The notes beneath the pieces are model-generated. The model did not search any database and was not told where the DNA came from. It saw nothing but the letters and a program-made list of their open reading frames with translations. Positions 26,113 to 42,990 of a stretch of 64,000 nt of DNA are shown one piece after another. Position 1 is the first letter of the stretch; every line of letters starts with the position of its first letter. The position numbers and the translations under genes were made by a program. Origin of the DNA: Escherichia coli (GTDB lineage: Bacteria > Pseudomonadota > Gammaproteobacteria > Enterobacterales > Enterobacteriaceae); assembly GCF_030384885.1 (NCBI RefSeq), contig NZ_CP128613.1; one strand, written 5' to 3'.

Positions 26113-26126
26113 GGTGCGCATAATGT
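26113..26126. other. Left prophage-chromosome junction (dif-derived XerC arm fused to phage sequence)
   Basis: GGTGCGCATAATGT core followed by phage-derived CAACGCGTTATGTTGAAAAGG; sequence to the left differs from that left of the other two core copies, so it is chromosomal. Confidence 0.7.
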
Positions 26127-26210
26127 CAACGCGTTATGTTGAAAAGGCCGCTGCGAAAATCGAATCCCGCAGCGGCCTCTTTAGCATAACGTCATTGTGC
26201 GAACCAATAG

Positions 26211-27140
26211 CTACTTTTTCGTATAACTCTCTTCGCATTTAGCCAAAAACAGCAGATTAGTAGCGGTTAAATGAAGGGTATAACTCGCTAAATACTCAGG
26301 AACTTTTGTTATTTCTGCCCCTTGTCCATGTCCACCTTCTTTATTTCGAATGGTTGGAATACCACTCTCAAGTAGAATTCTTATTGAAGAAAATTGATTC
26401 TGGAGGTATTCAGGTACTAAATTATTTGCCAAACAACTGTTAATTAGTTTTTTAGCTGTGTCAGTATCATTAAATTGCCAAGAATGTTTTTTATGTATGG
26501 CTTTCATTAGACTTTCAAAAGATTTGAGGCAATCATTTAAACATTCTTTATATCGCTGATGTCTATAATGCTCATGGGCGGATAAAAACTCATCGTTTGC
26601 TCCGTTATAACTCTTGTTCTTACCAAGAATCTGAAGCGTAGGCTTTACAACATCAGAATGAATGAATTGTGAGTCAACTTTAACCAACTCTCCTGACTCA
26701 AATTGATATCCAAGACCTGCTTCTTTAAACCTGATATTAAGTTCTTCAATAGCATCATCAGGACTTTGCTTTACTAACCCTCTGAATTTCCACTCATTTG
26801 ATCTTATATACCCGTCTATCAGTTTGAAACATATCTCAATGATATCCAAGCATTTTTCATGATCTCTCTCAGCTAGGAAATAGTCAAAAATTGCCCCGAA
26901 ATTCGATTCAGGATACTGTTTGAGAGAGAATACACCATATTCCTTACACAGCGTTTTATGAACGAGTCTGTAAAGCTTACTTGCTTCCGTTTCATAGTCA
27001 CTATCTTCACCGATAGTATCTCTTACAATATGAACAACCTGAACACGAAATGCATTTGGTATATTCGTGTATTGGTAAACATCAGCTACTTCACCTCTTA
27101 ATTTTTTTTGTCTTTTTGAAAATAATTCGAATATAGCCAA
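26211..27140 (-). CDS. Prophage cargo: putative HEPN-domain (Abi_C/AbiJ-like) abortive-infection protein
   Basis: 309-aa ORF with a C-terminal R-x5-H-G motif (IRNKEGGHGQG) of the kind seen in HEPN/Abi_C RNase domains. Apparent TTG start with RBS GAGGA 7 nt upstream. Last gene of the leftward operon. Family assignment is from motif recall only. Confidence 0.5.
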   Translation of the reverse strand: MAIFELFSKRQKKLRGEVADVYQYTNIPNAFRVQVVHIVRDTIGEDSDYETEASKLYRLVHKTLCKEYGVFSLKQYPESNFGAIFDYFLAERDHEKCLDIIEICFKLIDGYIRSNEWKFRGLVKQSPDDAIEELNIRFKEAGLGYQFESGELVKVDSQFIHSDVVKPTLQILGKNKSYNGANDEFLSAHEHYRHQRYKECLNDCLKSFESLMKAIHKKHSWQFNDTDTAKKLINSCLANNLVPEYLQNQFSSIRILLESGIPTIRNKEGGHGQGAEITKVPEYLASYTLHLTATNLLFLAKCEESYTKK

Positions 27141-27223
27141 TTTATAATCCTCAAAGATATGCCATTAATATGTCTGAGTTGATGAAAATCACACCGCTTT
27201 TACAGTCGTTTTCCACGGTGGAG

Positions 27224-27646
27224 TTACCAGTAATATGAGTTTCTTCTGTGCCACCAATAAAGAAGTCCGTATCCAATGATAAGAATTCCGAAAAACATCA
27301 ACGACATTCCCCAGCCAGTTCCGTACCACGAAACCATATCATCGAAAACTAACCCACCCATTTCACGAACTCCGGCTGCTTCCTTAAGAATTGGTTTGAA
27401 TACCGGAATCAGAAGGGCGATCGCAAGTGGAGCACCCCAGCGAACAAGACCAGTTTCCATTTTGATCCCGAAAAAGATCCCCGCACCGACAACAAGCAAC
27501 CAGACTATCAGGCCAGGCGCAGTTTCTAGTGCTGTTTGCCATTCAACATCGAAAGTTTTCATTAGCCAGGCAACAACTGCCAGACAGAAAGCAAATACGC
27601 CTACAACAACCAGTTCAACGCCGCTTGTTTCGTTATTTCTACTCAT
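27224..27646 (-). CDS. Prophage cargo: small integral membrane protein (about 4 TM helices)
   Basis: Track ORF 27224-27793 trimmed to the internal ATG at 27646 (MSRNNETSGVELVVVGVFAF...) with RBS AAGGAT, which removes the overlap with the upstream gene. Four hydrophobic segments; function unknown. Confidence 0.55.
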   Translation of the reverse strand: MSRNNETSGVELVVVGVFAFCLAVVAWLMKTFDVEWQTALETAPGLIVWLLVVGAGIFFGIKMETGLVRWGAPLAIALLIPVFKPILKEAAGVREMGGLVFDDMVSWYGTGWGMSLMFFGILIIGYGLLYWWHRRNSYYW

Positions 27647-27734
27647 CCTTTTGATCCTTTGTTGCTGTTCAAAATCCGCACAATAAAGAACGTGCAGTGT
27701 AGGTAATACTGCACGTTTGTACCATTCGTGGTAC

Positions 27735-27917
27735 TTAATCCTTTTGTTTGGCAGACATGAGATCTTCTGCTGCATCTTTAGAGTAGTTATCAATCAGATA
27801 ACCTAAAATCTCTGTCCATGTAATTGTTTTTCCTAGTTTTACACTGGCATTTATAGCCAGTCGTTCTAGTTTCATTTTTCTTTCTTCCGTCACGTTATAA
27901 GTCGTGCGCTTTGCCAT
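27735..27917 (-). CDS. Small putative DNA-binding regulator (candidate phage repressor)
   Basis: 60-aa ORF divergently transcribed from gII, the position occupied by repressors in CTX-type phages; basic N-terminus (MAKRTTYNVTEERKMKLERLAI). Fold not verified. Confidence 0.4.
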   Translation of the reverse strand: MAKRTTYNVTEERKMKLERLAINASVKLGKTITWTEILGYLIDNYSKDAAEDLMSAKQKD

Positions 27918-27964
27918 TTTTTACGCTCGTTCAATGCAATATTTGAAGTGAGTATACATGCTCA

Positions 27965-28045
27965 TGAACTCATATCATCCAAGCCTCTTGAACTCACTAG
28001 CTCACTGGTGTAATGTTTAAACACTAATGAACTACTGAACTCATG
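27965..28045. promoter_or_regulatory. Divergent promoter/operator region with iterated TGAACTCA motifs
   Basis: TGAACTCA at 27965-27972, 27989-27996 and 28038-28045, plus the variant TGAACTAC at 28027-28034, between the regulator gene and gII. Confidence 0.5.
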
Positions 28046-28086
28046 TGTTAGTAAGTCGTCATTTTTGTAATTTTGAGGATTTATTC

Positions 28087-29139
28087 GTGATCGATTGGCT
28101 TACCGGGATTTTCCCTTGCACACACAAACCGCTTCCGGCGGGGAGTGTTGTCAGCGTTGATGCTGACGGTGCAATTGAGTGGGAAACCGTTAAGCGACTG
28201 ACTGTTCGCGGTTCGCATGAAGCAACGATGAAAGTACGATCGATAGGATCTAATGGCGAAGGTAAAGCGACACATTTGTACATTGATGGTAATCCTTCCA
28301 AGTTTCTGCAGGGGCATTCTGTTGTTGGGTCGGATGATATACAAGGGCTCATGTTGACGGTCTATGCCAGGATTTTATCCTTATTGAATATTCCTCATGA
28401 TTTAGCGGCTTATAAAGCCGTTATGGCAGGTCAGTATAAAATTTCACGTATTGACATTAATTACATGTATTCATTATCTACGCTGGAAAATGTCAGATCA
28501 TGGCTTTATGCCGCCGAATTTAAAGCTAAAACACGCCATGGTCGCGCATGTGGGAAAGGCGGTACAGTTTATTTAGGTAAAAACTCCCGTCGATGGAGTC
28601 TGAAATTTTATTCAAAATATGATGAACACGTTTCTGGTAAAAAAGGGCACCAGATAGCCGAAGAGTTTGTACGAGCCGGGTTACTGGACTGGACGAAAGA
28701 TAAATTACGTATTGAATTAACATTAAGAACAACTGAGCTTATTGATTTAAATTTAACGCTTGGCGCTAACTGGAATATGAAAACACCACGTCAATTATTC
28801 TCTGAATATGTAGGGAGAATAGAAATGAATCAGAATGCTATTTTAAGTGATGAAAAAATAACGAAACTGCCAAGAAAAATACAGTCAACTTATTTACTTT
28901 GGAAACAAGGGGCTAACATGAAAGAAATGTTACCTCATAACACTTTTTATCGCCATAGAAGAGAATTGCTTTCGTTCGGTATCGATATTAATTTCTATTG
29001 TGATTCACCAGACTCTAATAACGTTGTTCCGCTAATAAGAACGCTGGAAGCCAAGCCAGCGGAAATCCCCTTATGGATTTATGAGAAAGGTTTTATTTTC
29101 GATTACAACCGTATTTCGCACGCCAGTAGCTGGCATTAA
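28087..29139 (+). CDS. Replication initiation protein (gII-like rolling-circle nickase)
   Basis: Track ORF 28045-29139 (GTG). Preferred start is GTG 28087 with RBS GAGGA 7 nt upstream, giving N-terminus MIDWLTGIFPC... comparable to M13 pII MIDMLVLRLPF...; C-terminal NNVVPLIRT resembles pII NNVVPLVRF. Confidence 0.75.
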   Translation: MIDWLTGIFPCTHKPLPAGSVVSVDADGAIEWETVKRLTVRGSHEATMKVRSIGSNGEGKATHLYIDGNPSKFLQGHSVVGSDDIQGLMLTVYARILSLLNIPHDLAAYKAVMAGQYKISRIDINYMYSLSTLENVRSWLYAAEFKAKTRHGRACGKGGTVYLGKNSRRWSLKFYSKYDEHVSGKKGHQIAEEFVRAGLLDWTKDKLRIELTLRTTELIDLNLTLGANWNMKTPRQLFSEYVGRIEMNQNAILSDEKITKLPRKIQSTYLLWKQGANMKEMLPHNTFYRHRRELLSFGIDINFYCDSPDSNNVVPLIRTLEAKPAEIPLWIYEKGFIFDYNRISHASSWH

Positions 29140-29150
29140 AGGAAAGTAAT

Positions 29151-29468
29151 ATGTCTAATTATGGTCTTTTCGTTAAGGGTAAAATGTTGGGAGCCCGCCA
29201 ACGTAATAAAGTTAATGGTCAGGGCTATTATAATGAAATTGGTATTGGCCTTGAAATACCTGATGGTTTTGGTGGTACAAAGCAGGATCAAATTATTATT
29301 CGAGTTTCTCAGGCTCTCGTTAACGCAGGTCTAATGAACCAGGCGAATGCTTTCATTGGGAAATTAGTTCAAATTCCTGTCTATGTCCGTGCGTGGTCAA
29401 TGGAGGGTAGGGAAGGTGTAACTTATAATGTTTCTTCCGATGGTGGCATCGCAGAGATCAAAGGTTAA
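29151..29468 (+). CDS. ssDNA-binding protein (gV-like)
   Basis: 105-aa ORF immediately after gII with RBS AGGAAAG; position and size fit the inovirus ssDNA-binding protein. Confidence 0.65.
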   Translation: MSNYGLFVKGKMLGARQRNKVNGQGYYNEIGIGLEIPDGFGGTKQDQIIIRVSQALVNAGLMNQANAFIGKLVQIPVYVRAWSMEGREGVTYNVSSDGGIAEIKG

Positions 29469-29470
29469 AT

Positions 29471-29557
29471 ATGGACGATGTTATTCAAATTTTGATAGCG
29501 TCTGGCATCGTTATTTCTTTTGGCCTCGGCGCGATTACTGCGGGGGTCTTTCGTTAA
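29471..29557 (+). CDS. Minor coat protein (gVII-like), 28 aa
   Basis: MDDVIQILIASGIVISFGLGAITAGVFR resembles M13 g7p (MEQVADFDTIYQAMIQISVVLCFALGIIAGGQR). Below the ORF-track size cut-off; found by hand. Confidence 0.65.
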   Translation: MDDVIQILIASGIVISFGLGAITAGVFR

Positions 29558-29652
29558 TGTATATCGTTTATTTCTTCGGGGCTTATACCTTTGGTTTTGC
29601 CCTTTTCTATGCGGTCGGTTCATTTAAATCATTTTCTGACCGATTAATGTAA
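29557..29652 (+). CDS. Minor coat protein (gIX-like), 31 aa
   Basis: MYIVYFFGAYTFGFALFYAVGSFKSFSDRLM; start overlaps the gVII stop (TAATG) as in Ff phages; hydrophobic like M13 g9p. Confidence 0.6.
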   Translation: MYIVYFFGAYTFGFALFYAVGSFKSFSDRLM

Positions 29653-29671
29653 CCTTAATGGAGTTATTCCT

Positions 29672-29914
29672 ATGAAAATTCTGTCTACTGTTAAATATAA
29701 AGTTGCTCTGGCTTCAACTGCGCTTTTTATTTCTGCAAGTTCTTTTGCGGCTGAAGGCGCTACAGGTGGTACTGATTATGCAGGCCAGGCAATGGATGCT
29801 TTGTTGACTCAGGCAAATGATCTCATTGGTAAAGTATGGCCTGTTGTTGTGGCTGTGGTTGGCGCTGGGCTTGCCATTCGTATTTTCAAAAAATTCTCTT
29901 CAAAAGCGGTTTGA
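29672..29914 (+). CDS. Major coat protein (gVIII-like)
   Basis: 80-aa ORF with signal peptide ending SFAAEG and C-terminus [12 protein letters not shown], close to M13 g8p (...SFAAEG... IKLFKKFTSKAS). Confidence 0.9.
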
Positions 29915-29960
29915 ATTTCACTCAGGGGCACTCGTTGCCCCTTTATTAAAGCGGGTTACT

Positions 29961-31211
29961 ATGAAAAGGAAAATATTAATTCTTTCCGCTGTCCTCATTT
30001 CTCCTTTTTCACATGCTGAGTCATGGGAAAGCATTACTAAATCCACTTATCAAAGTTCTGCCTATGCTGAAAGTAAGCAAATAACCAATCAGGATGGCTC
30101 TAAGATAACGGTTTACTATATTGATGCTGCTATGCAGGCCTCCGCTTGTCAGGGTGCTAAATCCAGTGCTCAGAGTGTATTTACTCGGATTAAACCAACT
30201 TATGAGGGTATCTGGCCTGATTCTGAATTCCGTCTTGTTTTTACTGGCGATTGTACTTACAGCGATTCACCAGGGCAGAAGGATAAATATTGGTCTTTAA
30301 CGGCTTATATTGTTGGTAATATTCAGCGTTCTGTTCCTGATGAAAAACCTACTGACCCGACACCAGAAGAAATTTGTGAAGCGAAGCCGCCAGAAGAAGG
30401 TGTATTTAATAATGTTGATTCATATGATGGTGGTCGCTATATCTACTATAACGGCTGTGAATATGAGGCTACTGGTGTCATTGTTTGTCAGGGTGATGGT
30501 ACTGTTTGCGCTGCAACATGGAAGCCTACAGGTGCTGTAGCTGACCCCTCTGATAAACCCTCAACCCCCCAAAATGGTGGTGGTGAGTCTGGCGGTGGTG
30601 AGTCCGGCGGTGGTGAGTCCGGTGGTGGTGAGTCTGGCGGTGGTGAGTCCGGTGGCGGTAGTTCTGGCGGTGGCTCTAGTGGTTCCAGTCTTTCTAAAGG
30701 TGATATTCAGTCTGCGATCGAAGGTGCTTCACCCAAAATAGCCAGCGATATTCATGATAAATTAACGGAGAAAGACACTTCATCAGATGATAAAAAAAAT
30801 GCCGATGAACAAACCAGGAATAATATAAATCGTCTTGACGATTCCATTAACAATCTTACGCGGGGGGCTGGCCGTTTTGCTGACCCTTCAGGTGGTGATT
30901 CTCGTTATGGAAAGGGCGACTCTGAATTAGATGGCGCTTCTACTTTAGCTGATTCTGAATTGGGAATTGAAAAGGATTCTCACGGTGCTTTATGGGAAGC
31001 ATTTTTAAATAAAGGTGCTATGCTGCCTAATTTACCCAATGGTAACGGCTGCTCTGATTTTATTATTTTTCCCGGAGAGGTTTATCAGATTGATATTGGT
31101 TGCGATAAATTACTGACTATTAAAGATGTTCTTTCATGGGTTTTTTATTGCCTTACGTTCTGGTATGTCTTTACTTCTTTAACTTCATTGCTTCGCAAAG
31201 GGGGTGAGTGA
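29961..31211 (+). CDS. Adsorption protein (gIII-like) with Gly-rich linker
   Basis: Track ORF 29817-31211 trimmed to ATG 29961 ([19 protein letters not shown] signal peptide). GGGES x5 linker and C-terminal anchor (IDIGCDKLL...[17 protein letters not shown]) resemble M13 g3p. Confidence 0.85.
30575..30690 (+). repeat. Tandem 15-bp coding repeats (GGGES)n in the gIII linker
   Basis: Repeated ggtggtgagtc(c/t)ggc units read directly. Confidence 0.85.
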
Positions 31212-31552
31212 TGCCTTTATTATTAGGTATTCCTGCATTGTTGCGTTTTCTTATTGGTCTTGTTCCTTTGTTTATTGGCTATGTGGCGAGTTTTTTAGCT
31301 CGACTTGCTACCAGAACAGGATTAATTGCCTTTGCATTGGTCGCATTAATTACAACAACTGTTACGCTTTTAATGCAGTACCTTGCTGAGGTCATGTATA
31401 ACGGTTTACCTGCTGATTTCTCCCATTTAATGGCGTCTGTATTGCCTGACCATTTTCAGGCGTGTGTTAACGTTATTATGGTTACTCGTATCAGTGTTTT
31501 TGTTTTCGATTTAAAACAAAAATTTCTTGATTATGCAAACAGGGTGATTTAA
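31211..31552 (+). CDS. Minor coat protein (gVI-like)
   Basis: [24 protein letters not shown]... resembles M13 g6p MPVLLGIPLLLRFLGFLLVTLFGY...; ATG overlaps the gIII stop (TGATG). Confidence 0.85.
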   Translation: MPLLLGIPALLRFLIGLVPLFIGYVASFLARLATRTGLIAFALVALITTTVTLLMQYLAEVMYNGLPADFSHLMASVLPDHFQACVNVIMVTRISVFVFDLKQKFLDYANRVI

Positions 31553-32647
31553 ATGGCGGTTTATGTAGTAACAGGCAAATTAGGCTCAGGCAAGACACTT
31601 GTTAGTGTTTCCAGAATACAGGAAAGACTTGCTAAGGGTTGTCCTGTTGCCACTAATCTTGATCTTAAATTGCATAATATGCCTATGGTTGGGCGTTATG
31701 CGAAAAAAACGCGCGTTATTCGCATTCCTGACAAACCTTCATTAAATGATTTACTTGCTATTGGTACTGGGAATACATCTTACGATGAATCCCGTAATGG
31801 CCTCCTTGTACTTGATGAATGTGGTACTTGGTTTAATTCCCGCTCATGGGGTGATAAAGACAGGCAACCTGTTATTGACTGGTTTTTACATGCCAGAAAA
31901 TTAGGCTGGGATATTATATTTTTGATTCAGGATATTTCGATAATGGATAAGCAAGCTCGTCTGGCGCTTGCTGAGCATGTTGTTTATTGTCGCCGTTCAG
32001 ATAAATTAAACATTCCTTTTGTTGGCTCCATTATGAATTTGGTTTCAGGGGCGAGATTTTCTTTACCAAAGGTACACTTTGGCATTGTCAAATATGGTGA
32101 TAATGTTAATTCAATCACTGTTGATAAATGGATATATACAGGAAAATCTCTTTATTCTGCTTACAATACCAAACAAGCGTTCACAGATAATTATCCTCAT
32201 GGCGCATTTTCGCTTTTGCCACCATTTATCACGCACGGTCAATTTTCTGTTCACAGAGGATTTAATTATTATATGCGCCTCACTAAAATTTATTTTCGCA
32301 AATCGAACCGTCTTATATTAATGCTTTCTTTTTTGGCGCTGGGGCTTGCGTTTGGTTTCTGGCTCCAGTCTGGAAAGAATGTTGATGAAATCTCAGCTAT
32401 TAAATCTGCTTATGCTGAACAGGCGAGGGCGGTAACGCCTGATTCGTCCAGTGACTTACCCCGACTTTCTATTAATTCTTTTTCACAACTTGGCTTTGAC
32501 GTTTCCGTTACGTTTGTTGATGCAAAAGGTATGAAATATCAGTATTTTGATTTGATTAAAGATGGTTATTCCGTTGATATTAAAGATGCCTGTCGTGTTG
32601 TTATTAGAAAAGGCCGTTATTTACAGACTGTTACCTGTCAGGAGTAA
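31553..32647 (+). CDS. Assembly ATPase (gI-like; Zot family)
   Basis: MAVYVVTGKLGSGKTLVSV... resembles M13 g1p MAVYFVTGKLGSGKTLVSV...; Walker A GKLGSGKT; C-terminal TM segment. Confidence 0.9.
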   Translation: MAVYVVTGKLGSGKTLVSVSRIQERLAKGCPVATNLDLKLHNMPMVGRYAKKTRVIRIPDKPSLNDLLAIGTGNTSYDESRNGLLVLDECGTWFNSRSWGDKDRQPVIDWFLHARKLGWDIIFLIQDISIMDKQARLALAEHVVYCRRSDKLNIPFVGSIMNLVSGARFSLPKVHFGIVKYGDNVNSITVDKWIYTGKSLYSAYNTKQAFTDNYPHGAFSLLPPFITHGQFSVHRGFNYYMRLTKIYFRKSNRLILMLSFLALGLAFGFWLQSGKNVDEISAIKSAYAEQARAVTPDSSSDLPRLSINSFSQLGFDVSVTFVDAKGMKYQYFDLIKDGYSVDIKDACRVVIRKGRYLQTVTCQE

Positions 32648-32654
32648 TATTATT

Positions 32655-33920
32655 ATGCGCTCTGTTATTGTTGCTTTTTTATTTGCCTGTTCATTCTGCG
32701 TTTCTGCTGAAACTGTTAATTTAAATAATTCATCTGTTCGCTCATTTGTTCAGTGGTATTCTTCAAAAACTGGCAAGCCTGTTATTGTTAATCCTGATAT
32801 TAAAGGAAACGTAACCGTATTTAATGCTGATGTTAATCCAGCAAATATTGATGATTTCTTTAAGTCTGTTCTGAATGCTAACGGTTTTGTCATGCTTTCT
32901 GGCAATCCTGCGGTAGTCTCTTTGCCGTCTAAATTACCTTCACAGATGGTTTCGGATTCCGATGATTCTGATAACCAGTCTTATGATACTTTTCCTTCTG
33001 AGCCATCTTACCAGCCAGTACCTGTGGCGCTTACGGTCAGAAATTTTAAGCTGACAAAAGTTAGATCGTCCGATGTTCAGCAACTGATTAAAATTTATCT
33101 TGATTCTAATGGTGGTGGTAATGTCGTGGATTATCCAGGCAATAACTCGCTGATTGTTTCTGCGCCTGACGAGCTGCTGCCGGTTCTGTCCGATTTTATC
33201 AATTCTGTGGATGTTGCCCGCGATCAGGTTCTCATTCAGTCGCTGATGTTTGAAACCAGCTTGTCTGATGGCGTTGATTTATCGTTTGCGGCAGGTTCTG
33301 CATCCGGTCATAAGGTTGCGGGGGGCTTTAATACTTCTGCACTGGGTAGCGCTCTTTCTACGGCGGGCGGTTCTTTTGGTATTTTTGATGGTAACGTGTT
33401 GGCGCTGTCTCTGCGTGCTGTCCAGAGTAATTCACGCTCTAAGGTGATTTCAACGCCGCGTATTCTTACTCAGTCTGGTCAGACTGGTTACATTTCCGTA
33501 GGTAAGAATGTGCCGTTTATCACCGGAAAGGTAACGGGCGAATCTGCCGGGGTAAATAATCCGTTTCAGACTATCGAGCGTCATGATGTTGGCGTTTCTC
33601 TCAAGGTAACGCCTGTTGTCATGGGTAACGGGCAACTAGTTCTGACTATCGACACTCGCGCTGATTCAATCAGCAATGATGATCAGGCATCCGATATTAT
33701 TACTAATCAGCGCCAGATTCAGACGACAGTCCAGATTAAGGATGGTCAGACGTTGTTATTGGGAGGGCTTATCGATTCATCGTTCAGCAATGCCGAGCGT
33801 TCAGTTCCAGTTATAAGTAAAATTCCTCTTATAGGCTGGATTTTCAGTAGCAAGGCAGACAGCAATGAACAGCGTATTATGTATATTTTGCTTACAGCAC
33901 ATATCATTCGTCCACTTTGA
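32655..33920 (+). CDS. Outer-membrane secretin (gIV-like)
   Basis: Track ORF 32562-33920 trimmed to ATG 32655 (MRSVIVAFLFACSFCVSA signal peptide). Secretin C-domain (GQTLLLGGLIDSSFSNAERSVPVISKIPLIGWIFSS) resembles M13 g4p. Confidence 0.9.
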   Translation: MRSVIVAFLFACSFCVSAETVNLNNSSVRSFVQWYSSKTGKPVIVNPDIKGNVTVFNADVNPANIDDFFKSVLNANGFVMLSGNPAVVSLPSKLPSQMVSDSDDSDNQSYDTFPSEPSYQPVPVALTVRNFKLTKVRSSDVQQLIKIYLDSNGGGNVVDYPGNNSLIVSAPDELLPVLSDFINSVDVARDQVLIQSLMFETSLSDGVDLSFAAGSASGHKVAGGFNTSALGSALSTAGGSFGIFDGNVLALSLRAVQSNSRSKVISTPRILTQSGQTGYISVGKNVPFITGKVTGESAGVNNPFQTIERHDVGVSLKVTPVVMGNGQLVLTIDTRADSISNDDQASDIITNQRQIQTTVQIKDGQTLLLGGLIDSSFSNAERSVPVISKIPLIGWIFSSKADSNEQRIMYILLTAHIIRPL

Positions 33921-33962
33921 TGGATAGCGGGTAGGTGCGTGAGCCCTGCTCGCTATCCATCA
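33918..33962 (+). other. Strong stem-loop after gIV (candidate packaging signal, origin element or terminator)
   Basis: Perfect 12-bp inverted repeat TGATGGATAGCG / CGCTATCCATCA around a 21-nt loop, with no trailing T-run. Confidence 0.5.
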
Positions 33963-33989
33963 AATGGACATTATTGATTGGGGTAACTA

Positions 33990-34298
33990 ATGGATTCTTA
34001 TGGGATTTTATCTGCTCTGGCAGAACGAACGATTACAGCGGAAGAAGCAAAAACAATGACACTTGCAGCCAGAAGTTCTTCGGCTCAGGTAAATGAAGCA
34101 TCACTTGCTCTGTTACTGATTGATAATACTCTGGATGCGATCAAAGCAGCTGCCAGTGAAGGGAAAGGATACACTTTACTTCCTTCTTATGAGATTTCTG
34201 TAAAAGCCATTGATTTAGCAGAAGAATTTTTAAGGAAACAATGCGGCTATGTTATTGATAACCAGAATGGCGTAAGGACGGTCTATTGGTTTATATGA
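33990..34298 (+). CDS. Prophage cargo: hypothetical 102-aa protein
   Basis: ORF after gIV, where Ff phages have only the non-coding intergenic region; no recognisable motif. Confidence 0.45.
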   Translation: MDSYGILSALAERTITAEEAKTMTLAARSSSAQVNEASLALLLIDNTLDAIKAAASEGKGYTLLPSYEISVKAIDLAEEFLRKQCGYVIDNQNGVRTVYWFI

Positions 34299-34415
34299 TA
34301 ACCCCGGACAATGACAAAACTTGCTTTTGTTAGTGTCAGGGGTTGGCCAAGCCGAACAATTCTGTTTTTTTAGCGTTATTGCTGATTCGGCGCGGCAGCA
34401 TTACGAGGAGATAAA

Positions 34416-34649
34416 ATGCAATTTTTCACATCCAGCGATACTGTAATGTTATGTGCGAAGACCTGCGATCGCTGTGGTCGCCATGCGAAGACGGTGGTAG
34501 ATGACATTGAGTTCAATGAGTTTCTGTCTGTTAATCACTTAGCTGGATACGGTTCAATTTTTGGTGACAGTAATCGCTTAAAACTGGATTTATGCCAACA
34601 TTGCCTGAAAGACGTCCTGGGCCAGTGGATTACGGTCTGTGACCAATGA
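34416..34649 (+). CDS. Prophage cargo: small zinc-ribbon protein (CxxC...CxxC)
   Basis: 77-aa ORF with CDRC ... CQHC cysteine pairs; RBS GAGGAG upstream. Confidence 0.5.
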   Translation: MQFFTSSDTVMLCAKTCDRCGRHAKTVVDDIEFNEFLSVNHLAGYGSIFGDSNRLKLDLCQHCLKDVLGQWITVCDQ

Positions 34650-34687
34650 CGGCACCGGTAACGCCAGTTCCCGCCATCCTTACCATT

Positions 34688-34701
34688 GGTGCGCATAATG
34701 T
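34688..34701. other. Inter-copy junction (reconstituted phage attP-like site)
   Basis: GGTGCGCATAATGT core flanked by phage sequence on both sides (...CCATCCTTACCATT | core | CAACGCGTTATGTTGAAAAGG). Confidence 0.7.
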
Positions 34702-34785
34702 CAACGCGTTATGTTGAAAAGGCCGCTGCGAAAATCGAATCCCGCAGCGGCCTCTTTAGCATAACGTCATTGTGCGAACCAATAG

Positions 34786-35715
34786 CTACTTTTTCGTATA
34801 ACTCTCTTCGCATTTAGCCAAAAACAGCAGATTAGTAGCGGTTAAATGAAGGGTATAACTCGCTAAATACTCAGGAACTTTTGTTATTTCTGCCCCTTGT
34901 CCATGTCCACCTTCTTTATTTCGAATGGTTGGAATACCACTCTCAAGTAGAATTCTTATTGAAGAAAATTGATTCTGGAGGTATTCAGGTACTAAATTAT
35001 TTGCCAAACAACTGTTAATTAGTTTTTTAGCTGTGTCAGTATCATTAAATTGCCAAGAATGTTTTTTATGTATGGCTTTCATTAGACTTTCAAAAGATTT
35101 GAGGCAATCATTTAAACATTCTTTATATCGCTGATGTCTATAATGCTCATGGGCGGATAAAAACTCATCGTTTGCTCCGTTATAACTCTTGTTCTTACCA
35201 AGAATCTGAAGCGTAGGCTTTACAACATCAGAATGAATGAATTGTGAGTCAACTTTAACCAACTCTCCTGACTCAAATTGATATCCAAGACCTGCTTCTT
35301 TAAACCTGATATTAAGTTCTTCAATAGCATCATCAGGACTTTGCTTTACTAACCCTCTGAATTTCCACTCATTTGATCTTATATACCCGTCTATCAGTTT
35401 GAAACATATCTCAATGATATCCAAGCATTTTTCATGATCTCTCTCAGCTAGGAAATAGTCAAAAATTGCCCCGAAATTCGATTCAGGATACTGTTTGAGA
35501 GAGAATACACCATATTCCTTACACAGCGTTTTATGAACGAGTCTGTAAAGCTTACTTGCTTCCGTTTCATAGTCACTATCTTCACCGATAGTATCTCTTA
35601 CAATATGAACAACCTGAACACGAAATGCATTTGGTATATTCGTGTATTGGTAAACATCAGCTACTTCACCTCTTAATTTTTTTTGTCTTTTTGAAAATAA
35701 TTCGAATATAGCCAA
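34786..35715 (-). CDS. Copy 2: putative HEPN/Abi_C-like protein
   Basis: Identical translation to 26211-27140 (offset +8575). Confidence 0.5.
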   Translation of the reverse strand: MAIFELFSKRQKKLRGEVADVYQYTNIPNAFRVQVVHIVRDTIGEDSDYETEASKLYRLVHKTLCKEYGVFSLKQYPESNFGAIFDYFLAERDHEKCLDIIEICFKLIDGYIRSNEWKFRGLVKQSPDDAIEELNIRFKEAGLGYQFESGELVKVDSQFIHSDVVKPTLQILGKNKSYNGANDEFLSAHEHYRHQRYKECLNDCLKSFESLMKAIHKKHSWQFNDTDTAKKLINSCLANNLVPEYLQNQFSSIRILLESGIPTIRNKEGGHGQGAEITKVPEYLASYTLHLTATNLLFLAKCEESYTKK

Positions 35716-35798
35716 TTTATAATCCTCAAAGATATGCCATTAATATGTCTGAGTTGATGAAAATCACACCGCTTTTACAGTCGTTTTCCACGGTGGAG

Positions 35799-36221
35799 TT
35801 ACCAGTAATATGAGTTTCTTCTGTGCCACCAATAAAGAAGTCCGTATCCAATGATAAGAATTCCGAAAAACATCAACGACATTCCCCAGCCAGTTCCGTA
35901 CCACGAAACCATATCATCGAAAACTAACCCACCCATTTCACGAACTCCGGCTGCTTCCTTAAGAATTGGTTTGAATACCGGAATCAGAAGGGCGATCGCA
36001 AGTGGAGCACCCCAGCGAACAAGACCAGTTTCCATTTTGATCCCGAAAAAGATCCCCGCACCGACAACAAGCAACCAGACTATCAGGCCAGGCGCAGTTT
36101 CTAGTGCTGTTTGCCATTCAACATCGAAAGTTTTCATTAGCCAGGCAACAACTGCCAGACAGAAAGCAAATACGCCTACAACAACCAGTTCAACGCCGCT
36201 TGTTTCGTTATTTCTACTCAT
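35799..36221 (-). CDS. Copy 2: small integral membrane protein
   Basis: Identical to 27224-27646 (offset +8575). Confidence 0.55.
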   Translation of the reverse strand: MSRNNETSGVELVVVGVFAFCLAVVAWLMKTFDVEWQTALETAPGLIVWLLVVGAGIFFGIKMETGLVRWGAPLAIALLIPVFKPILKEAAGVREMGGLVFDDMVSWYGTGWGMSLMFFGILIIGYGLLYWWHRRNSYYW

Positions 36222-36309
36222 CCTTTTGATCCTTTGTTGCTGTTCAAAATCCGCACAATAAAGAACGTGCAGTGTAGGTAATACTGCACGTTTGTACCAT
36301 TCGTGGTAC

Positions 36310-36492
36310 TTAATCCTTTTGTTTGGCAGACATGAGATCTTCTGCTGCATCTTTAGAGTAGTTATCAATCAGATAACCTAAAATCTCTGTCCATGTAATT
36401 GTTTTTCCTAGTTTTACACTGGCATTTATAGCCAGTCGTTCTAGTTTCATTTTTCTTTCTTCCGTCACGTTATAAGTCGTGCGCTTTGCCAT
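36310..36492 (-). CDS. Copy 2: small putative DNA-binding regulator
   Basis: Identical to 27735-27917 (offset +8575). Confidence 0.4.
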   Translation of the reverse strand: MAKRTTYNVTEERKMKLERLAINASVKLGKTITWTEILGYLIDNYSKDAAEDLMSAKQKD

Positions 36493-36539
36493 TTTTTACG
36501 CTCGTTCAATGCAATATTTGAAGTGAGTATACATGCTCA

Positions 36540-36620
36540 TGAACTCATATCATCCAAGCCTCTTGAACTCACTAGCTCACTGGTGTAATGTTTAAACACT
36601 AATGAACTACTGAACTCATG
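36540..36620. promoter_or_regulatory. Copy 2: TGAACTCA iteron/operator region
   Basis: Identical to 27965-28045 (offset +8575). Confidence 0.5.
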
Positions 36621-36661
36621 TGTTAGTAAGTCGTCATTTTTGTAATTTTGAGGATTTATTC

Positions 36662-37714
36662 GTGATCGATTGGCTTACCGGGATTTTCCCTTGCACACAC
36701 AAACCGCTTCCGGCGGGGAGTGTTGTCAGCGTTGATGCTGACGGTGCAATTGAGTGGGAAACCGTTAAGCGACTGACTGTTCGCGGTTCGCATGAAGCAA
36801 CGATGAAAGTACGATCGATAGGATCTAATGGCGAAGGTAAAGCGACACATTTGTACATTGATGGTAATCCTTCCAAGTTTCTGCAGGGGCATTCTGTTGT
36901 TGGGTCGGATGATATACAAGGGCTCATGTTGACGGTCTATGCCAGGATTTTATCCTTATTGAATATTCCTCATGATTTAGCGGCTTATAAAGCCGTTATG
37001 GCAGGTCAGTATAAAATTTCACGTATTGACATTAATTACATGTATTCATTATCTACGCTGGAAAATGTCAGATCATGGCTTTATGCCGCCGAATTTAAAG
37101 CTAAAACACGCCATGGTCGCGCATGTGGGAAAGGCGGTACAGTTTATTTAGGTAAAAACTCCCGTCGATGGAGTCTGAAATTTTATTCAAAATATGATGA
37201 ACACGTTTCTGGTAAAAAAGGGCACCAGATAGCCGAAGAGTTTGTACGAGCCGGGTTACTGGACTGGACGAAAGATAAATTACGTATTGAATTAACATTA
37301 AGAACAACTGAGCTTATTGATTTAAATTTAACGCTTGGCGCTAACTGGAATATGAAAACACCACGTCAATTATTCTCTGAATATGTAGGGAGAATAGAAA
37401 TGAATCAGAATGCTATTTTAAGTGATGAAAAAATAACGAAACTGCCAAGAAAAATACAGTCAACTTATTTACTTTGGAAACAAGGGGCTAACATGAAAGA
37501 AATGTTACCTCATAACACTTTTTATCGCCATAGAAGAGAATTGCTTTCGTTCGGTATCGATATTAATTTCTATTGTGATTCACCAGACTCTAATAACGTT
37601 GTTCCGCTAATAAGAACGCTGGAAGCCAAGCCAGCGGAAATCCCCTTATGGATTTATGAGAAAGGTTTTATTTTCGATTACAACCGTATTTCGCACGCCA
37701 GTAGCTGGCATTAA
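36662..37714 (+). CDS. Copy 2: replication initiation protein (gII-like)
   Basis: Identical to 28087-29139 (offset +8575). Confidence 0.75.
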   Translation: MIDWLTGIFPCTHKPLPAGSVVSVDADGAIEWETVKRLTVRGSHEATMKVRSIGSNGEGKATHLYIDGNPSKFLQGHSVVGSDDIQGLMLTVYARILSLLNIPHDLAAYKAVMAGQYKISRIDINYMYSLSTLENVRSWLYAAEFKAKTRHGRACGKGGTVYLGKNSRRWSLKFYSKYDEHVSGKKGHQIAEEFVRAGLLDWTKDKLRIELTLRTTELIDLNLTLGANWNMKTPRQLFSEYVGRIEMNQNAILSDEKITKLPRKIQSTYLLWKQGANMKEMLPHNTFYRHRRELLSFGIDINFYCDSPDSNNVVPLIRTLEAKPAEIPLWIYEKGFIFDYNRISHASSWH

Positions 37715-37725
37715 AGGAAAGTAAT

Positions 37726-38043
37726 ATGTCTAATTATGGTCTTTTCGTTAAGGGTAAAATGTTGGGAGCCCGCCAACGTAATAAAGTTAATGGTCAGGGC
37801 TATTATAATGAAATTGGTATTGGCCTTGAAATACCTGATGGTTTTGGTGGTACAAAGCAGGATCAAATTATTATTCGAGTTTCTCAGGCTCTCGTTAACG
37901 CAGGTCTAATGAACCAGGCGAATGCTTTCATTGGGAAATTAGTTCAAATTCCTGTCTATGTCCGTGCGTGGTCAATGGAGGGTAGGGAAGGTGTAACTTA
38001 TAATGTTTCTTCCGATGGTGGCATCGCAGAGATCAAAGGTTAA
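37726..38043 (+). CDS. Copy 2: ssDNA-binding protein (gV-like)
   Basis: Identical to 29151-29468 (offset +8575). Confidence 0.65.
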   Translation: MSNYGLFVKGKMLGARQRNKVNGQGYYNEIGIGLEIPDGFGGTKQDQIIIRVSQALVNAGLMNQANAFIGKLVQIPVYVRAWSMEGREGVTYNVSSDGGIAEIKG

Positions 38044-38045
38044 AT

Positions 38046-38132
38046 ATGGACGATGTTATTCAAATTTTGATAGCGTCTGGCATCGTTATTTCTTTTGGCC
38101 TCGGCGCGATTACTGCGGGGGTCTTTCGTTAA
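38046..38132 (+). CDS. Copy 2: gVII-like minor coat protein
   Basis: Identical to 29471-29557 (offset +8575). Confidence 0.65.
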   Translation: MDDVIQILIASGIVISFGLGAITAGVFR

Positions 38133-38227
38133 TGTATATCGTTTATTTCTTCGGGGCTTATACCTTTGGTTTTGCCCTTTTCTATGCGGTCGGTTCATTT
38201 AAATCATTTTCTGACCGATTAATGTAA
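38132..38227 (+). CDS. Copy 2: gIX-like minor coat protein
   Basis: Identical to 29557-29652 (offset +8575). Confidence 0.6.
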   Translation: MYIVYFFGAYTFGFALFYAVGSFKSFSDRLM

Positions 38228-38246
38228 CCTTAATGGAGTTATTCCT

Positions 38247-38489
38247 ATGAAAATTCTGTCTACTGTTAAATATAAAGTTGCTCTGGCTTCAACTGCGCTT
38301 TTTATTTCTGCAAGTTCTTTTGCGGCTGAAGGCGCTACAGGTGGTACTGATTATGCAGGCCAGGCAATGGATGCTTTGTTGACTCAGGCAAATGATCTCA
38401 TTGGTAAAGTATGGCCTGTTGTTGTGGCTGTGGTTGGCGCTGGGCTTGCCATTCGTATTTTCAAAAAATTCTCTTCAAAAGCGGTTTGA
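38247..38489 (+). CDS. Copy 2: major coat protein (gVIII-like)
   Basis: Identical to 29672-29914 (offset +8575). Confidence 0.9.
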
Positions 38490-38535
38490 ATTTCACTCAG
38501 GGGCACTCGTTGCCCCTTTATTAAAGCGGGTTACT

Positions 38536-39786
38536 ATGAAAAGGAAAATATTAATTCTTTCCGCTGTCCTCATTTCTCCTTTTTCACATGCTGAGTCATG
38601 GGAAAGCATTACTAAATCCACTTATCAAAGTTCTGCCTATGCTGAAAGTAAGCAAATAACCAATCAGGATGGCTCTAAGATAACGGTTTACTATATTGAT
38701 GCTGCTATGCAGGCCTCCGCTTGTCAGGGTGCTAAATCCAGTGCTCAGAGTGTATTTACTCGGATTAAACCAACTTATGAGGGTATCTGGCCTGATTCTG
38801 AATTCCGTCTTGTTTTTACTGGCGATTGTACTTACAGCGATTCACCAGGGCAGAAGGATAAATATTGGTCTTTAACGGCTTATATTGTTGGTAATATTCA
38901 GCGTTCTGTTCCTGATGAAAAACCTACTGACCCGACACCAGAAGAAATTTGTGAAGCGAAGCCGCCAGAAGAAGGTGTATTTAATAATGTTGATTCATAT
39001 GATGGTGGTCGCTATATCTACTATAACGGCTGTGAATATGAGGCTACTGGTGTCATTGTTTGTCAGGGTGATGGTACTGTTTGCGCTGCAACATGGAAGC
39101 CTACAGGTGCTGTAGCTGACCCCTCTGATAAACCCTCAACCCCCCAAAATGGTGGTGGTGAGTCTGGCGGTGGTGAGTCCGGCGGTGGTGAGTCCGGTGG
39201 TGGTGAGTCTGGCGGTGGTGAGTCCGGTGGCGGTAGTTCTGGCGGTGGCTCTAGTGGTTCCAGTCTTTCTAAAGGTGATATTCAGTCTGCGATCGAAGGT
39301 GCTTCACCCAAAATAGCCAGCGATATTCATGATAAATTAACGGAGAAAGACACTTCATCAGATGATAAAAAAAATGCCGATGAACAAACCAGGAATAATA
39401 TAAATCGTCTTGACGATTCCATTAACAATCTTACGCGGGGGGCTGGCCGTTTTGCTGACCCTTCAGGTGGTGATTCTCGTTATGGAAAGGGCGACTCTGA
39501 ATTAGATGGCGCTTCTACTTTAGCTGATTCTGAATTGGGAATTGAAAAGGATTCTCACGGTGCTTTATGGGAAGCATTTTTAAATAAAGGTGCTATGCTG
39601 CCTAATTTACCCAATGGTAACGGCTGCTCTGATTTTATTATTTTTCCCGGAGAGGTTTATCAGATTGATATTGGTTGCGATAAATTACTGACTATTAAAG
39701 ATGTTCTTTCATGGGTTTTTTATTGCCTTACGTTCTGGTATGTCTTTACTTCTTTAACTTCATTGCTTCGCAAAGGGGGTGAGTGA
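38536..39786 (+). CDS. Copy 2: adsorption protein (gIII-like)
   Basis: Identical to 29961-31211 (offset +8575). Confidence 0.85.
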
Positions 39787-40127
39787 TGCCTTTATTATTA
39801 GGTATTCCTGCATTGTTGCGTTTTCTTATTGGTCTTGTTCCTTTGTTTATTGGCTATGTGGCGAGTTTTTTAGCTCGACTTGCTACCAGAACAGGATTAA
39901 TTGCCTTTGCATTGGTCGCATTAATTACAACAACTGTTACGCTTTTAATGCAGTACCTTGCTGAGGTCATGTATAACGGTTTACCTGCTGATTTCTCCCA
40001 TTTAATGGCGTCTGTATTGCCTGACCATTTTCAGGCGTGTGTTAACGTTATTATGGTTACTCGTATCAGTGTTTTTGTTTTCGATTTAAAACAAAAATTT
40101 CTTGATTATGCAAACAGGGTGATTTAA
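39786..40127 (+). CDS. Copy 2: gVI-like minor coat protein
   Basis: Identical to 31211-31552 (offset +8575). Confidence 0.85.
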   Translation: MPLLLGIPALLRFLIGLVPLFIGYVASFLARLATRTGLIAFALVALITTTVTLLMQYLAEVMYNGLPADFSHLMASVLPDHFQACVNVIMVTRISVFVFDLKQKFLDYANRVI

Positions 40128-41222
40128 ATGGCGGTTTATGTAGTAACAGGCAAATTAGGCTCAGGCAAGACACTTGTTAGTGTTTCCAGAATACAGGAAA
40201 GACTTGCTAAGGGTTGTCCTGTTGCCACTAATCTTGATCTTAAATTGCATAATATGCCTATGGTTGGGCGTTATGCGAAAAAAACGCGCGTTATTCGCAT
40301 TCCTGACAAACCTTCATTAAATGATTTACTTGCTATTGGTACTGGGAATACATCTTACGATGAATCCCGTAATGGCCTCCTTGTACTTGATGAATGTGGT
40401 ACTTGGTTTAATTCCCGCTCATGGGGTGATAAAGACAGGCAACCTGTTATTGACTGGTTTTTACATGCCAGAAAATTAGGCTGGGATATTATATTTTTGA
40501 TTCAGGATATTTCGATAATGGATAAGCAAGCTCGTCTGGCGCTTGCTGAGCATGTTGTTTATTGTCGCCGTTCAGATAAATTAAACATTCCTTTTGTTGG
40601 CTCCATTATGAATTTGGTTTCAGGGGCGAGATTTTCTTTACCAAAGGTACACTTTGGCATTGTCAAATATGGTGATAATGTTAATTCAATCACTGTTGAT
40701 AAATGGATATATACAGGAAAATCTCTTTATTCTGCTTACAATACCAAACAAGCGTTCACAGATAATTATCCTCATGGCGCATTTTCGCTTTTGCCACCAT
40801 TTATCACGCACGGTCAATTTTCTGTTCACAGAGGATTTAATTATTATATGCGCCTCACTAAAATTTATTTTCGCAAATCGAACCGTCTTATATTAATGCT
40901 TTCTTTTTTGGCGCTGGGGCTTGCGTTTGGTTTCTGGCTCCAGTCTGGAAAGAATGTTGATGAAATCTCAGCTATTAAATCTGCTTATGCTGAACAGGCG
41001 AGGGCGGTAACGCCTGATTCGTCCAGTGACTTACCCCGACTTTCTATTAATTCTTTTTCACAACTTGGCTTTGACGTTTCCGTTACGTTTGTTGATGCAA
41101 AAGGTATGAAATATCAGTATTTTGATTTGATTAAAGATGGTTATTCCGTTGATATTAAAGATGCCTGTCGTGTTGTTATTAGAAAAGGCCGTTATTTACA
41201 GACTGTTACCTGTCAGGAGTAA
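40128..41222 (+). CDS. Copy 2: assembly ATPase (gI/Zot-like)
   Basis: Identical to 31553-32647 (offset +8575). Confidence 0.9.
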   Translation: MAVYVVTGKLGSGKTLVSVSRIQERLAKGCPVATNLDLKLHNMPMVGRYAKKTRVIRIPDKPSLNDLLAIGTGNTSYDESRNGLLVLDECGTWFNSRSWGDKDRQPVIDWFLHARKLGWDIIFLIQDISIMDKQARLALAEHVVYCRRSDKLNIPFVGSIMNLVSGARFSLPKVHFGIVKYGDNVNSITVDKWIYTGKSLYSAYNTKQAFTDNYPHGAFSLLPPFITHGQFSVHRGFNYYMRLTKIYFRKSNRLILMLSFLALGLAFGFWLQSGKNVDEISAIKSAYAEQARAVTPDSSSDLPRLSINSFSQLGFDVSVTFVDAKGMKYQYFDLIKDGYSVDIKDACRVVIRKGRYLQTVTCQE

Positions 41223-41229
41223 TATTATT

Positions 41230-42495: not shown

Positions 42496-42537
42496 TGGAT
42501 AGCGGGTAGGTGCGTGAGCCCTGCTCGCTATCCATCA
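42493..42537 (+). other. Copy 2: stem-loop after gIV
   Basis: Identical to 33918-33962 (offset +8575). Confidence 0.5.
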
Positions 42538-42564
42538 AATGGACATTATTGATTGGGGTAACTA

Positions 42565-42873: not shown

Positions 42874-42990
42874 TAACCCCGGACAATGACAAAACTTGCT
42901 TTTGTTAGTGTCAGGGGTTGGCCAAGCCGAACAATTCTGTTTTTTTAGCGTTATTGCTGATTCGGCGCGGCAGCATTACGAGGAGATAAA

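Follow-up and report, generated by a model that had tools for sequence, protein, structure and literature searches.

A tandem UPΦ-group prophage at the dif site of Escherichia coli, with a folded pair of inverted Xer sites as its probable attachment site

Which DNA does a filamentous phage without a recombinase of its own offer to the host enzymes XerC and XerD when it enters the chromosomal dif site: a linear site with an over-long spacer, or a structure that appears only once the strand is folded? The question is raised by a stretch of 64,000 nucleotides of the E. coli contig NZ_CP128613.1 (referred to here as the window), in which GGTGCGCATAA, the exact XerC arm of dif, occurs three times, at 26113, 34688 and 43263, always on the + strand. 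At the first two positions the arm is followed by the 10-nt sequence TGTCAACGCG and then by TTATGTTGAAA, which equals the XerD arm of dif at 9 of 11 positions. The third occurrence opens a complete dif: positions 43263-43290 read GGTGCGCATAATGTATATTATGTTAAAT and agree at 28 of 28 positions with the dif of E. coli K-12, which is the same as that of Y. pestis (both as given in PMC2731167). A sequence-only reading had described the first two as hybrid Xer sites with the XerC arm of dif, a 9/11 XerD-like arm and a spacer of about 10 bp, and had recognized an intact dif at the right junction. This description holds at both 26113 and 34688, with the XerC arm exact at all three sites; the hybrid site spans 26113-26144, so that the end at 26150 given in that reading overshoots by a few bases. 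The right-end dif is presumably functional.

The 8575-bp spacing of the sites follows from the layout of the element, since positions 26113-34687 and 34688-43262 are tandem prophage units, head-to-tail, 8575 bp each and identical at every base. The left flank of attL, TGGTTTATGTT, is the chromosomal dif flank of other E. coli genomes, and hipBA forms the left chromosomal flank of the tandem prophage. The left flank of attR, CCTTACCATT, is phage DNA. The left junction is a host/phage hybrid and the middle junction pure phage; both present the attP1 half of the attachment site and, by analogy with CTXφ, are predicted to be inert as double-stranded DNA. Coordinates of these junctions, of the hairpin described below and of the genes are collected in Table 1.

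Of 5426 complete E. coli genomes, 50 carry prophages that share 98.8-99.9% identity with the core of the unit, at a median of two places per carrier genome. Prophage copy 1 is 99.6% identical to the IMG/VR contig L006, and the core is 98.9% identical over 6.9 kb to the prophage of ECONIH2 (CP014667), the case study of PMC7307601. Its sequence thus places the window phage in the published UPΦ group, with the full core gene set II, V, VIII, III, VI, I and IV. The gene order is that of a complete Ff-like inovirus, in which the structural genes are IKe-like and genes II and V are YpfΦ-like. Gene IV has about 80% nucleotide identity to that of IKe and PEar, and the real start of gene III probably lies downstream of 29817, where its longest open reading frame begins. 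Pfam and PHROGs scans found no integrase or recombinase among the main ORFs of the element. A whole-unit megablast against a phage collection returned no named phage and, from IKe and the Erwinia PEar phages, no more than about 190 bp of gene IV; the identification was drawn from E. coli genomes and from the literature on UPΦ. We also considered an identity with CUS-1 or YpfΦ in the strict sense, taking about 99% core identity as the threshold, and rejected it: only genes II-V align, at 79-80% (Y. pestis L053 and the YpfΦ-type loci L042 and L058), and the structural genes show no blastn similarity.

UPΦ phages have been reported to integrate at dif as tandem repeats in which the repeats equal only about the first 15 nt of dif (Shapiro & Putonti 2020, PMC7307601). 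These partial repeats of about 15 nt are the hybrid sites seen here at 26113 and 34688, and they account for the fact that prophage finders and assemblers pick up no more than a partial dif repeat at unit boundaries. The window phage further shares with UPΦ (PMC7307601) the combination of IKe/I2-2-like structural genes with YpfΦ-like genes II and V, the reverse-oriented accessory ORFs beside dif, and two extra ORFs past gene IV. We infer that the ORFs at 33990-34298 and 34416-34649 are those two extra ORFs. The window unit differs from UPΦ901 in length (8575 bp versus 7560 bp) and in its AbiJ-like cargo. The position of the leftward ORFs at 27224..27917, where the regulator of CTXφ and YpfΦ is found, suggests a regulatory role; Pfam gave no match for either of them, and a PADLOC scan of the small ORFs returned nothing besides the AbiJ-like cargo gene. 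The terms attP, hairpin, inverted and central region are absent from the main text of PMC7307601, so that the paper does not set out the CTX-type anatomy of the UPΦ site.

Table 1. Features of the tandem prophage and its junctions (window coordinates).
Feature	Coordinates	Strand	Details
Prophage copy 1, UPΦ-group inovirus	26113..34687	+	8575 bp; 100% identical to copy 2
Prophage copy 2	34688..43262	+	8575 bp; zero differences from copy 1
attL hybrid (attP1 type): XerC arm GGTGCGCATAA from the host, central region TGTCAACGCG and XerD-like arm TTATGTTGAAA from the phage	26113..26144	+	
Middle junction: whole double-stranded attP region (attP1, stem-loop, inverted attP2)	34688..34780	+	phage DNA on both sides
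attR, intact dif: phage-derived XerC arm, host central region, host XerD arm	43263..43290	+	28/28
Hairpin unit, copy 1	26113..26205	+	93 nt
Hairpin: XerC arm	26113-26123		
Hairpin: top central region	26124-26133		10 nt
Hairpin: XerD-like arm	26134-26144		
Hairpin: GC stem, 5' side	26145-26155		
Hairpin: apical loop	26156-26167		
Hairpin: GC stem, 3' side	26168-26178		
Hairpin: inverted XerD-like arm	26179-26189		CTTTAGCATAA
Hairpin: bottom central region	26190-26194		CGTCA
Hairpin: inverted XerC-like arm	26195-26205		TTGTGCGAACC
AbiJ_NTD4 + DUF7014 cargo gene (STM4504/CBY_0614 family), beside attL	26211..27140	-	Pfam 1e-77, 9e-27; PADLOC PDC-S32 4.5e-10
Two small leftward ORFs (27224-27793, 27735-27917)	27224..27917	-	PHROGs 4174, 2503 (families without an assigned function)
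Gene II, rolling-circle replication initiator	28045..29139	+	Pfam Phage_CRI 1e-69, G2P_X_C 2e-29
Gene V, ssDNA-binding protein	29151..29468	+	Pfam Putative_G5P 3e-51
Gene VIII, major coat protein	29672..29914	+	Pfam Phage_coatGP8 8e-19; PHROG 1646
Gene III, attachment protein (longest ORF)	29817..31211	+	Pfam G3P_pilus-bind 3e-25
Gene VI-like protein	31208..31552	+	DUF5455
Gene I, Zot-family assembly ATPase	31553..32647	+	Pfam Zot 5e-41
Gene IV, secretin	32562..33920	+	Pfam Secretin 7e-43
Two small ORFs between gene IV and attP (33990-34298, 34416-34649)	33990..34649	+	PHROGs 4115, 5435

The sequence-only reading had taken the site with the 10-bp spacer as the attP itself, and in doing so overlooked a GC stem-loop and a second Xer-like site that lies in inverted orientation behind it. 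The second site, CTTTAGCATAA-CGTCA-TTGTGCGAACC, occupies 26179-26205 and is repeated at 34754-34780. It starts 34 nt past the XerD-like arm, beyond the stem-loop (AGGCCGCTGCG, a 12-nt loop and CGCAGCGGCCT), and on the other strand it reads GGTTCGCACAA-TGACG-TTATGCTAAAG, with both arms dif-like at 9 of 11 positions around a 5-nt central region. The + strand of the 93-nt unit folds into one hairpin with a ΔG of -33.5 kcal/mol; shuffled sequences reach -13.7 ± 2.5, which gives a z of -7.95. The inverted arms were also recovered independently. In this fold the XerC-like arms pair with each other, as do the XerD-like arms, giving a dif-like duplex; at the middle junction the phage flanks lengthen the stem by 3 bp (ATT/AAT). 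Pairing of the folded arms is imperfect, with G·T pairs and mismatches; Watson-Crick pairs form at 9/11 positions of the XerC arm and about 8/11 of the XerD arm. The central region, 10 nt on the top and 5 nt on the bottom (6 in dif, 7 in CTXφ attP2), forms a T:A and a G:C pair beside the XerC arm and a C:G and a G:C pair beside the XerD arm, which enclose an asymmetric internal loop of 6 nt on the top and 1 nt on the bottom. With ΔG -31.3 and z -6.35 the (-) strand is close behind, and folding energy therefore does not tell which strand is active. Since the phage core genes lie on the + strand of the window, this is also the sense expected of the packaged (+) strand under the Ff convention. 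A scan against Rfam gave generic hairpin matches only, far under the gathering scores. A role of the GC stem-loop as a bidirectional terminator was considered and is not claimed here: a terminator scan called no terminator in this conserved element, owing to its 12-nt loop and weak T-run.

This anatomy is the design known from CTXφ. The attP(+) of that phage (Val et al. 2005) is taken here as summarised in PMC3089051, PMC4246890 and PMC3442271. Its attP1, AGTGCGTATTA-TGTGGCGCGGCA-TTATGTTGAGG, has a 12-nt central region and its attP2, AATGCGTATTA-TACGCCA-TTATGTTACGG, one of 7 nt (PMC3089051); they lie in inverted orientation some 90 nt from each other and do not work as double-stranded DNA (PMC3089051, PMC4246890). 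In the CTX type it is a hairpin, built in (+) single-stranded DNA by the two inverted sites, that serves as the working site; conversion of the prophage to double-stranded DNA masks this hairpin and so makes integration irreversible (PMC3442271, PMC4246890). The window phage likewise has two inverted dif-like sites that fold in (+) ssDNA, the second with a central region 5 nt shorter than that of the over-long first (12 and 7 nt in CTXφ, 10 and 5 nt here). In both phages homology to dif is limited to the XerC-proximal TGT and the XerD arm has a G at position 8 (TTATGTTGAGG in CTXφ, TTATGTTGAAA here). Both regenerate dif at one end, lack a recombinase and form tandem arrays, which are typical of the CTX-type class and required for virion production. 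The two phages differ in the size of the hairpin (93 nt with a 34-nt GC stem-loop here, about 150 nt with about 90 nt between the sites in CTXφ) and in the bottom central region (5 versus 7 nt). Unlike CTXφ, the window phage has an E. coli host and arms that match E. coli dif, carries an IKe-like backbone with its own secretin, and is known here from sequence. The view of the sequence-only reading that this is a Xer-exploiting filamentous prophage of CTX type is thus borne out by the inovirus gene set, the lack of a recombinase and the folded inverted sites, and so is the likeness to the attP sites of known IMEX that it had proposed to look for.

The hairpin is almost identical to that of YpfΦ: the version in Y. 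pestis NCTC5923 (L053) differs only in the bulge, with TGTACGACTCG in place of TGTCAACGCG, and the right-end flank CCTTACCATT is common to that locus and the window phage. YpfΦ and CUS-1 resemble the window phage in integrating at dif as tandem repeats and in having related genes II and V, and are unlike it in the divergence of the gene II-V DNA and of the structural genes given above. The host of CUS-1 is E. coli O18:K1:H7, and that of YpfΦ is Yersinia pestis.

The hairpin is not confined to these phages and recurs in 41 viral contigs of IMG/VR. There, a pattern scan found matches in 44 contigs of inovirus size, and the loci collected up to that scan were parsed into 26 distinct hairpins of the same architecture. 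In a scan of one genome per species it was present in Y. pestis, Rosenbergiella, Erwinia, Lelliottia and Kluyvera, and the prophages of E. coli E24377A, UM146 and EC5502 bear further variants. The E24377A phage and the window phage are otherwise unrelated, and the hairpin is the sole phage segment in which they are similar by blastn. A rescan of IMG/VR without the TGT requirement returned the same loci, in which 41 of 41 hairpins open the central region with TGT, the three bases that dif and the hairpin have in common; the remainder of the central region differs. One contig, L013, has the central region TGTTGCA and no visible inverted partner, and from its sequence looks VGJ-like.

In an alignment of 23 of these sequences the proposed structure is paired in 96.7% of cells, against 28-55% in controls with slid partners. 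The search patterns fixed part of the top strand, and the comparison of paired with unpaired columns was accordingly restricted to columns free of that constraint; identity there is 95% in paired columns, with an entropy of 0.15 bit, and 68% in unpaired ones, with 1.02 bit (p = 2e-9). What varies, in both sequence and length, is the top-strand bulge and the apical loop, while the bottom CGTCA is essentially fixed; among relatives the top central region has 9-11 nt (9 nt in distant relatives) and the bottom one 5-6 nt. A free top-strand interior opposite a fixed CGTCA means that the extra top bases fit a bulge and not the spacer of a 10-bp duplex. In the distant relatives L016 and L019 the apical sequences are unrelated, yet the fold of arms plus 5' bulge is the same. 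Compensatory changes are few: the XerD-proximal central pair in Rosenbergiella (G:C to A:T; ...CG becomes ...CA on the top and CG... becomes TG... on the bottom), an A:T to T:A change in L018, and, in four sequences, a G:C to A:T change at the first position of the XerC arm. In the alignment only 3 pairs have changed on both sides. With most stem columns invariant, covariation is weak, so that the comparative support lies mainly in the pattern of conservation and no proof by covariation is claimed.

The crossover point can be read from the E24377A phage, whose own XerC arm differs from that of the host. In its free or tandem form (L038) the arm is AGTGCGCATAA; in the lysogen, attL has the host arm GGTGCGCATAA and the regenerated dif has AGTGCGCATAA after the phage flank. 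The arms have been swapped, which confines the exchange to the stretch from XerC-arm position 1 to central-region position 4. This bracket, which like the sequences, the fold, the conservation and the gene content comes from the present analysis, fits XerC cleavage at the border of arm and central region.

We consider it very probable that the pair of UPΦ units reached dif by means of the host XerC and XerD, with the 93-nt (+) ssDNA hairpin, and not the linear site with its 10-bp spacer, as attP. In the folded (+) strand, attP1 (GGTGCGCATAA-TGTCAACGCG-TTATGTTGAAA) would pair with the inverted attP2 into a dif-like duplex that shows 5'-GGTGCGCATAA^TGT as the strand cleavable by XerC. For the steps that follow, namely catalysis by XerC only, the enzymes involved, irreversibility and rolling-circle production from the array, we infer the course from the analogy with CTXφ and YpfΦ. 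XerC would cut the top strands of dif and hairpin after GGTGCGCATAA and exchange one pair of strands, an exchange that the TGT common to both would stabilise; XerD exchange would not take place, the rest of the central region being non-homologous, and replication would turn the pseudo-Holliday junction into a prophage. The products predicted in this way are those observed, an attL with the host XerC arm and the phage remainder and an attR with the phage XerC arm and the host remainder. In duplex form, attP1 with its 10-bp spacer and attP2 with its 5-bp spacer and poor arms would be masked and no excision by Xer would be expected, while the regenerated dif would stay open to dimer resolution and to further phage copies. 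From the tandem pair, the gene II protein would release (+) strands of unit length, with the middle junction as their attP. YpfΦ is reported to insert, on superinfection, preferentially between resident copies (PMC4266046), which counts against the classical model because that model did not predict such insertion.

Could the linear site nevertheless do the work, as a duplex attP that recombines straight with dif, XerC first, and whose 10-bp central region then blocks the reverse reaction? A top-strand exchange by XerC on double-stranded DNA would, after replication, yield the same junctions, so that the junction sequences cannot distinguish single- from double-stranded substrates; the TGT homology on the XerC side and the near invariance of the top XerD-like arm suit this account equally. 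It leaves the conserved inverted partner at its fixed distance unexplained, however, and a functional duplex spacer would not be expected to vary freely in its interior (10-11 nt, 9 nt in distant relatives) while the opposite CGTCA is conserved. Known functional Xer sites have central regions of 6-8 bp. The 12-bp spacer of CTXφ attP1 is reported to make it unsuitable for Xer recombination as a duplex (PMC4246890). VGJφ, the model for such a route, is also a filamentous phage at dif with XerC-first exchange and homology on the XerC side only, but it uses one 29-bp double-stranded site and excises reversibly, as VGJ-type phages generally have single sites of 29 bp (PMC4246890); instead of one duplex site (about 29 bp, central region 6-7 bp), the window phage has two inverted sites, the conserved second one included, and a 10-nt spacer. 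We therefore regard direct recombination of the duplex as improbable. The same comparison bears on the idea that the non-canonical spacer is the sole cause of irreversibility, which does not stand, because VGJ-type central regions are non-homologous too and yet these phages excise.

A TLC-type element, which would recombine XerD-first with the help of a phage-encoded Xer activation factor and through a degenerate XerD arm, is highly improbable here. The XerD-like arm is indeed imperfect (9/11) and several small ORFs are without assigned function, but at TLC-type sites the central region hardly differs from that of dif and there is nearly no XerD arm (PMC4246890), whereas the window phage shares TGT only and has a good XerD-like arm. 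Moreover, no ORF matched a Pfam family of the Xer-activation-factor kind, and in the TLC route Xer exchanges both pairs of strands, which would not leave an attP1-type hybrid with a foreign central region. The features found are those of the CTX type, that is, integration at dif with a regenerated dif, no recombinase, inverted sites in a hairpin, homology on the XerC side only, and a top central region longer than the bottom one (10 versus 5 nt, compared with 12 versus 7 in CTXφ). Finally, the likeness to dif might be accidental or the scar of a non-Xer event, and the copies the result of ordinary homologous or replicative duplication of a resident island. XerD-like 9/11 matches are by themselves not rare in the window (43 observed, 35 expected), and the sequence is silent on the origin of the second copy, which could be a second integration or a duplication. 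Against this stand a perfect XerC arm exactly at both element boundaries, an intact dif at the right end, a chromosomal flank the same as at empty dif sites, and the same boundaries in many genomes and species. The chance of a XerD-like arm 10 nt past a perfect XerC arm is about 2e-3, an estimate that allows for eight plausible spacings. Because its XerD-like arm follows a perfect XerC arm, an inverted partner lies 34 nt on and the 93-nt unit is conserved in dozens of phage genomes, the hybrid site is non-random; as an explanation of the sites themselves, accident or scar is already refuted, and we give this reading practically no weight.

Elements of this kind are not new: it is years since CUS-1 and YpfΦ were placed in the CTX-type class (PMC4266046, PMC4246890), and tandem UPΦ prophages at dif were described in 2020. 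What would be added to this is small, namely the UPΦ attachment site spelled out, as read from the sequence, together with a comparative set of variants. The CTX-type model of single-strand integration proposed for CUS-1 and YpfΦ is thereby extended to UPΦ by sequence analysis only. For annotation, the true dif of this chromosome is 43263-43290 and the 17 kb before it are a tandem UPΦ prophage; beyond correct annotation the importance is little, and the feature is real but ordinary. The set of hairpin variants could steer experiments on Xer substrates, in that the bulge is free while TGT and the bottom CGTCA are fixed.

A more speculative reading, which we think possible but rather unlikely, is that the 93-nt hairpin is a portable integration cassette, and that the hairpin and the cargo slot next to it, and not the phage, are the unit that spreads. 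No description of this idea was found in the literature examined. If it were true, the dif region of Enterobacterales would be a hotspot for the delivery of defence genes by single-stranded DNA. Four or more enterobacterial inovirus backbones that are otherwise unrelated to each other (UPΦ, YpfΦ-type, E24377A-type and SCU-484-type) carry the unit of attP1, GC stem-loop and attP2, and its geometry (bottom 5-6 nt, top 9-11 nt) is distinct from the 7/12 of CTXφ. The hairpin always adjoins swappable defence-like cargo, which may be AbiJ-like, SIR2 or of the ECs_2282 family; in UM146 and EC5502, other ORFs occupy the position of the AbiJ-like gene. Additionally, truncated copies of the hairpin move with IS1202/ISNCY-family elements to plasmids.

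Beside the folded attP hairpin, the tandem inovirus prophages carry a cargo gene encoding an AbiJ_NTD4 + DUF7014 protein, the attL-adjacent copy of which matches PADLOC PDC-S32 (4.5e-10). In E. coli UM146 and EC5502, the same UPΦ backbone carries other ORFs in the slot of this gene. SCU-484 has the gene and hairpin as in the window on a different inovirus backbone. Taken together, these gene arrangements indicate that the hairpin-side cargo slot is exchanged independently of the phage.

Related hairpins are also associated with transposase units of the ISNCY/IS1202 family, which directly adjoin a XerC arm, either that of dif or that of attL, and are bounded at both ends by imperfect inverted repeats of ~45 bp. 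Just within the left repeat lies a truncated phage hairpin that starts at TATGTTGAAAAGGCC and retains an intact attP2; the cargo after it is SIR2, AbiJ-like or of the ECs_2282 family. The SIR2 version is present in many E. coli genomes, and one version of the unit, with truncated hairpin and cargo, is carried by an APEC plasmid. That dif is a target of the IS1202 family has already been published (PMC10132070).

Features at Xer sites and in their surroundings, by locus
Feature	Locus and position	Strand	Remarks
AbiJ_NTD4 + DUF7014 gene, STM4504/CBY_0614 family	window, 26211-27140 and 34786-35715	- (26211-27140)	copy at 26211-27140 adjoins attL
ISNCY/IS1202-family transposase unit	E. coli 222 (L004), 11951-14716
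ISNCY/IS1202-family transposase unit	Z142-1 (L002), 12514-15330
ISNCY/IS1202-family transposase unit	plasmid L062, from ~3951
ISNCY/IS1202-family transposase unit	compared locus L012, ~950
Two attP1-type hybrid sites, then one intact dif	Rosenbergiella gaditana (L049), 2747, 5412, 12947
Xer site AGTGCGCATAA-TGTTGCA-TTATGTTAATA	IMG/VR contig 3300047160_000158 (L013), ~4394	-
XerC-arm-like GGTGCGCGTAA	window, 24087-24097		one mismatch to XerC arm; inside 1822-aa autotransporter ORF (18765-24233)
477-aa leucine-rich-repeat ORF	window, 44992-46425	-	LRR-family matches (LRR_4 4e-16); just past dif
60-bp unit, 8 head-to-tail copies	window, 45111-45770		inside ORF 44992-46425

Arrays of elements at dif were also seen in other genomes. 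In Rosenbergiella gaditana, the two hybrid sites upstream of the single intact dif differ from each other, with central regions TGTATGACGC... versus TGTCGACGCA, and the locus is a serial array of two different Xer-exploiting elements. E. coli EC5502 (NZ_CP092647) has a very long tandem array of UPΦ-type prophages at dif (L060, 10230-46878 and beyond), with at least 5 unit junctions in 47 kb and 16 blast places in the record. With its numerous frameshifted genes and hairpins that differ by 1 nt, this array suggests either errors in the long-read assembly or the collapse of reads from the replicative form.

The scan that retrieved the CTX-type hairpins also returned the site on IMG/VR contig 3300047160_000158, which looks like a VGJ-type double-stranded site, since its central region is 7 nt and an inverted partner is not obvious nearby. 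Two metagenome contigs, assigned to MAGs labelled ‘Candidatus Nanosynbacter’ (L051) and ‘Ruminococcaceae’ (L058), each contain the E. coli dif flank TGGTTTATGTT and an inovirus prophage, the latter also having a perfect E. coli dif. Both are probably mis-binned Enterobacteriaceae contigs.

Within the window, the XerC-arm-like match in the autotransporter ORF has no detected dif-like site and was judged a chance match; the window holds four XerC-arm matches, and 5 of 100 shuffles gave as many or more. In the leucine-rich-repeat ORF, the 60-bp units, 61-75% identical to the reference copy, each correspond to one 20-residue LRR repeat.
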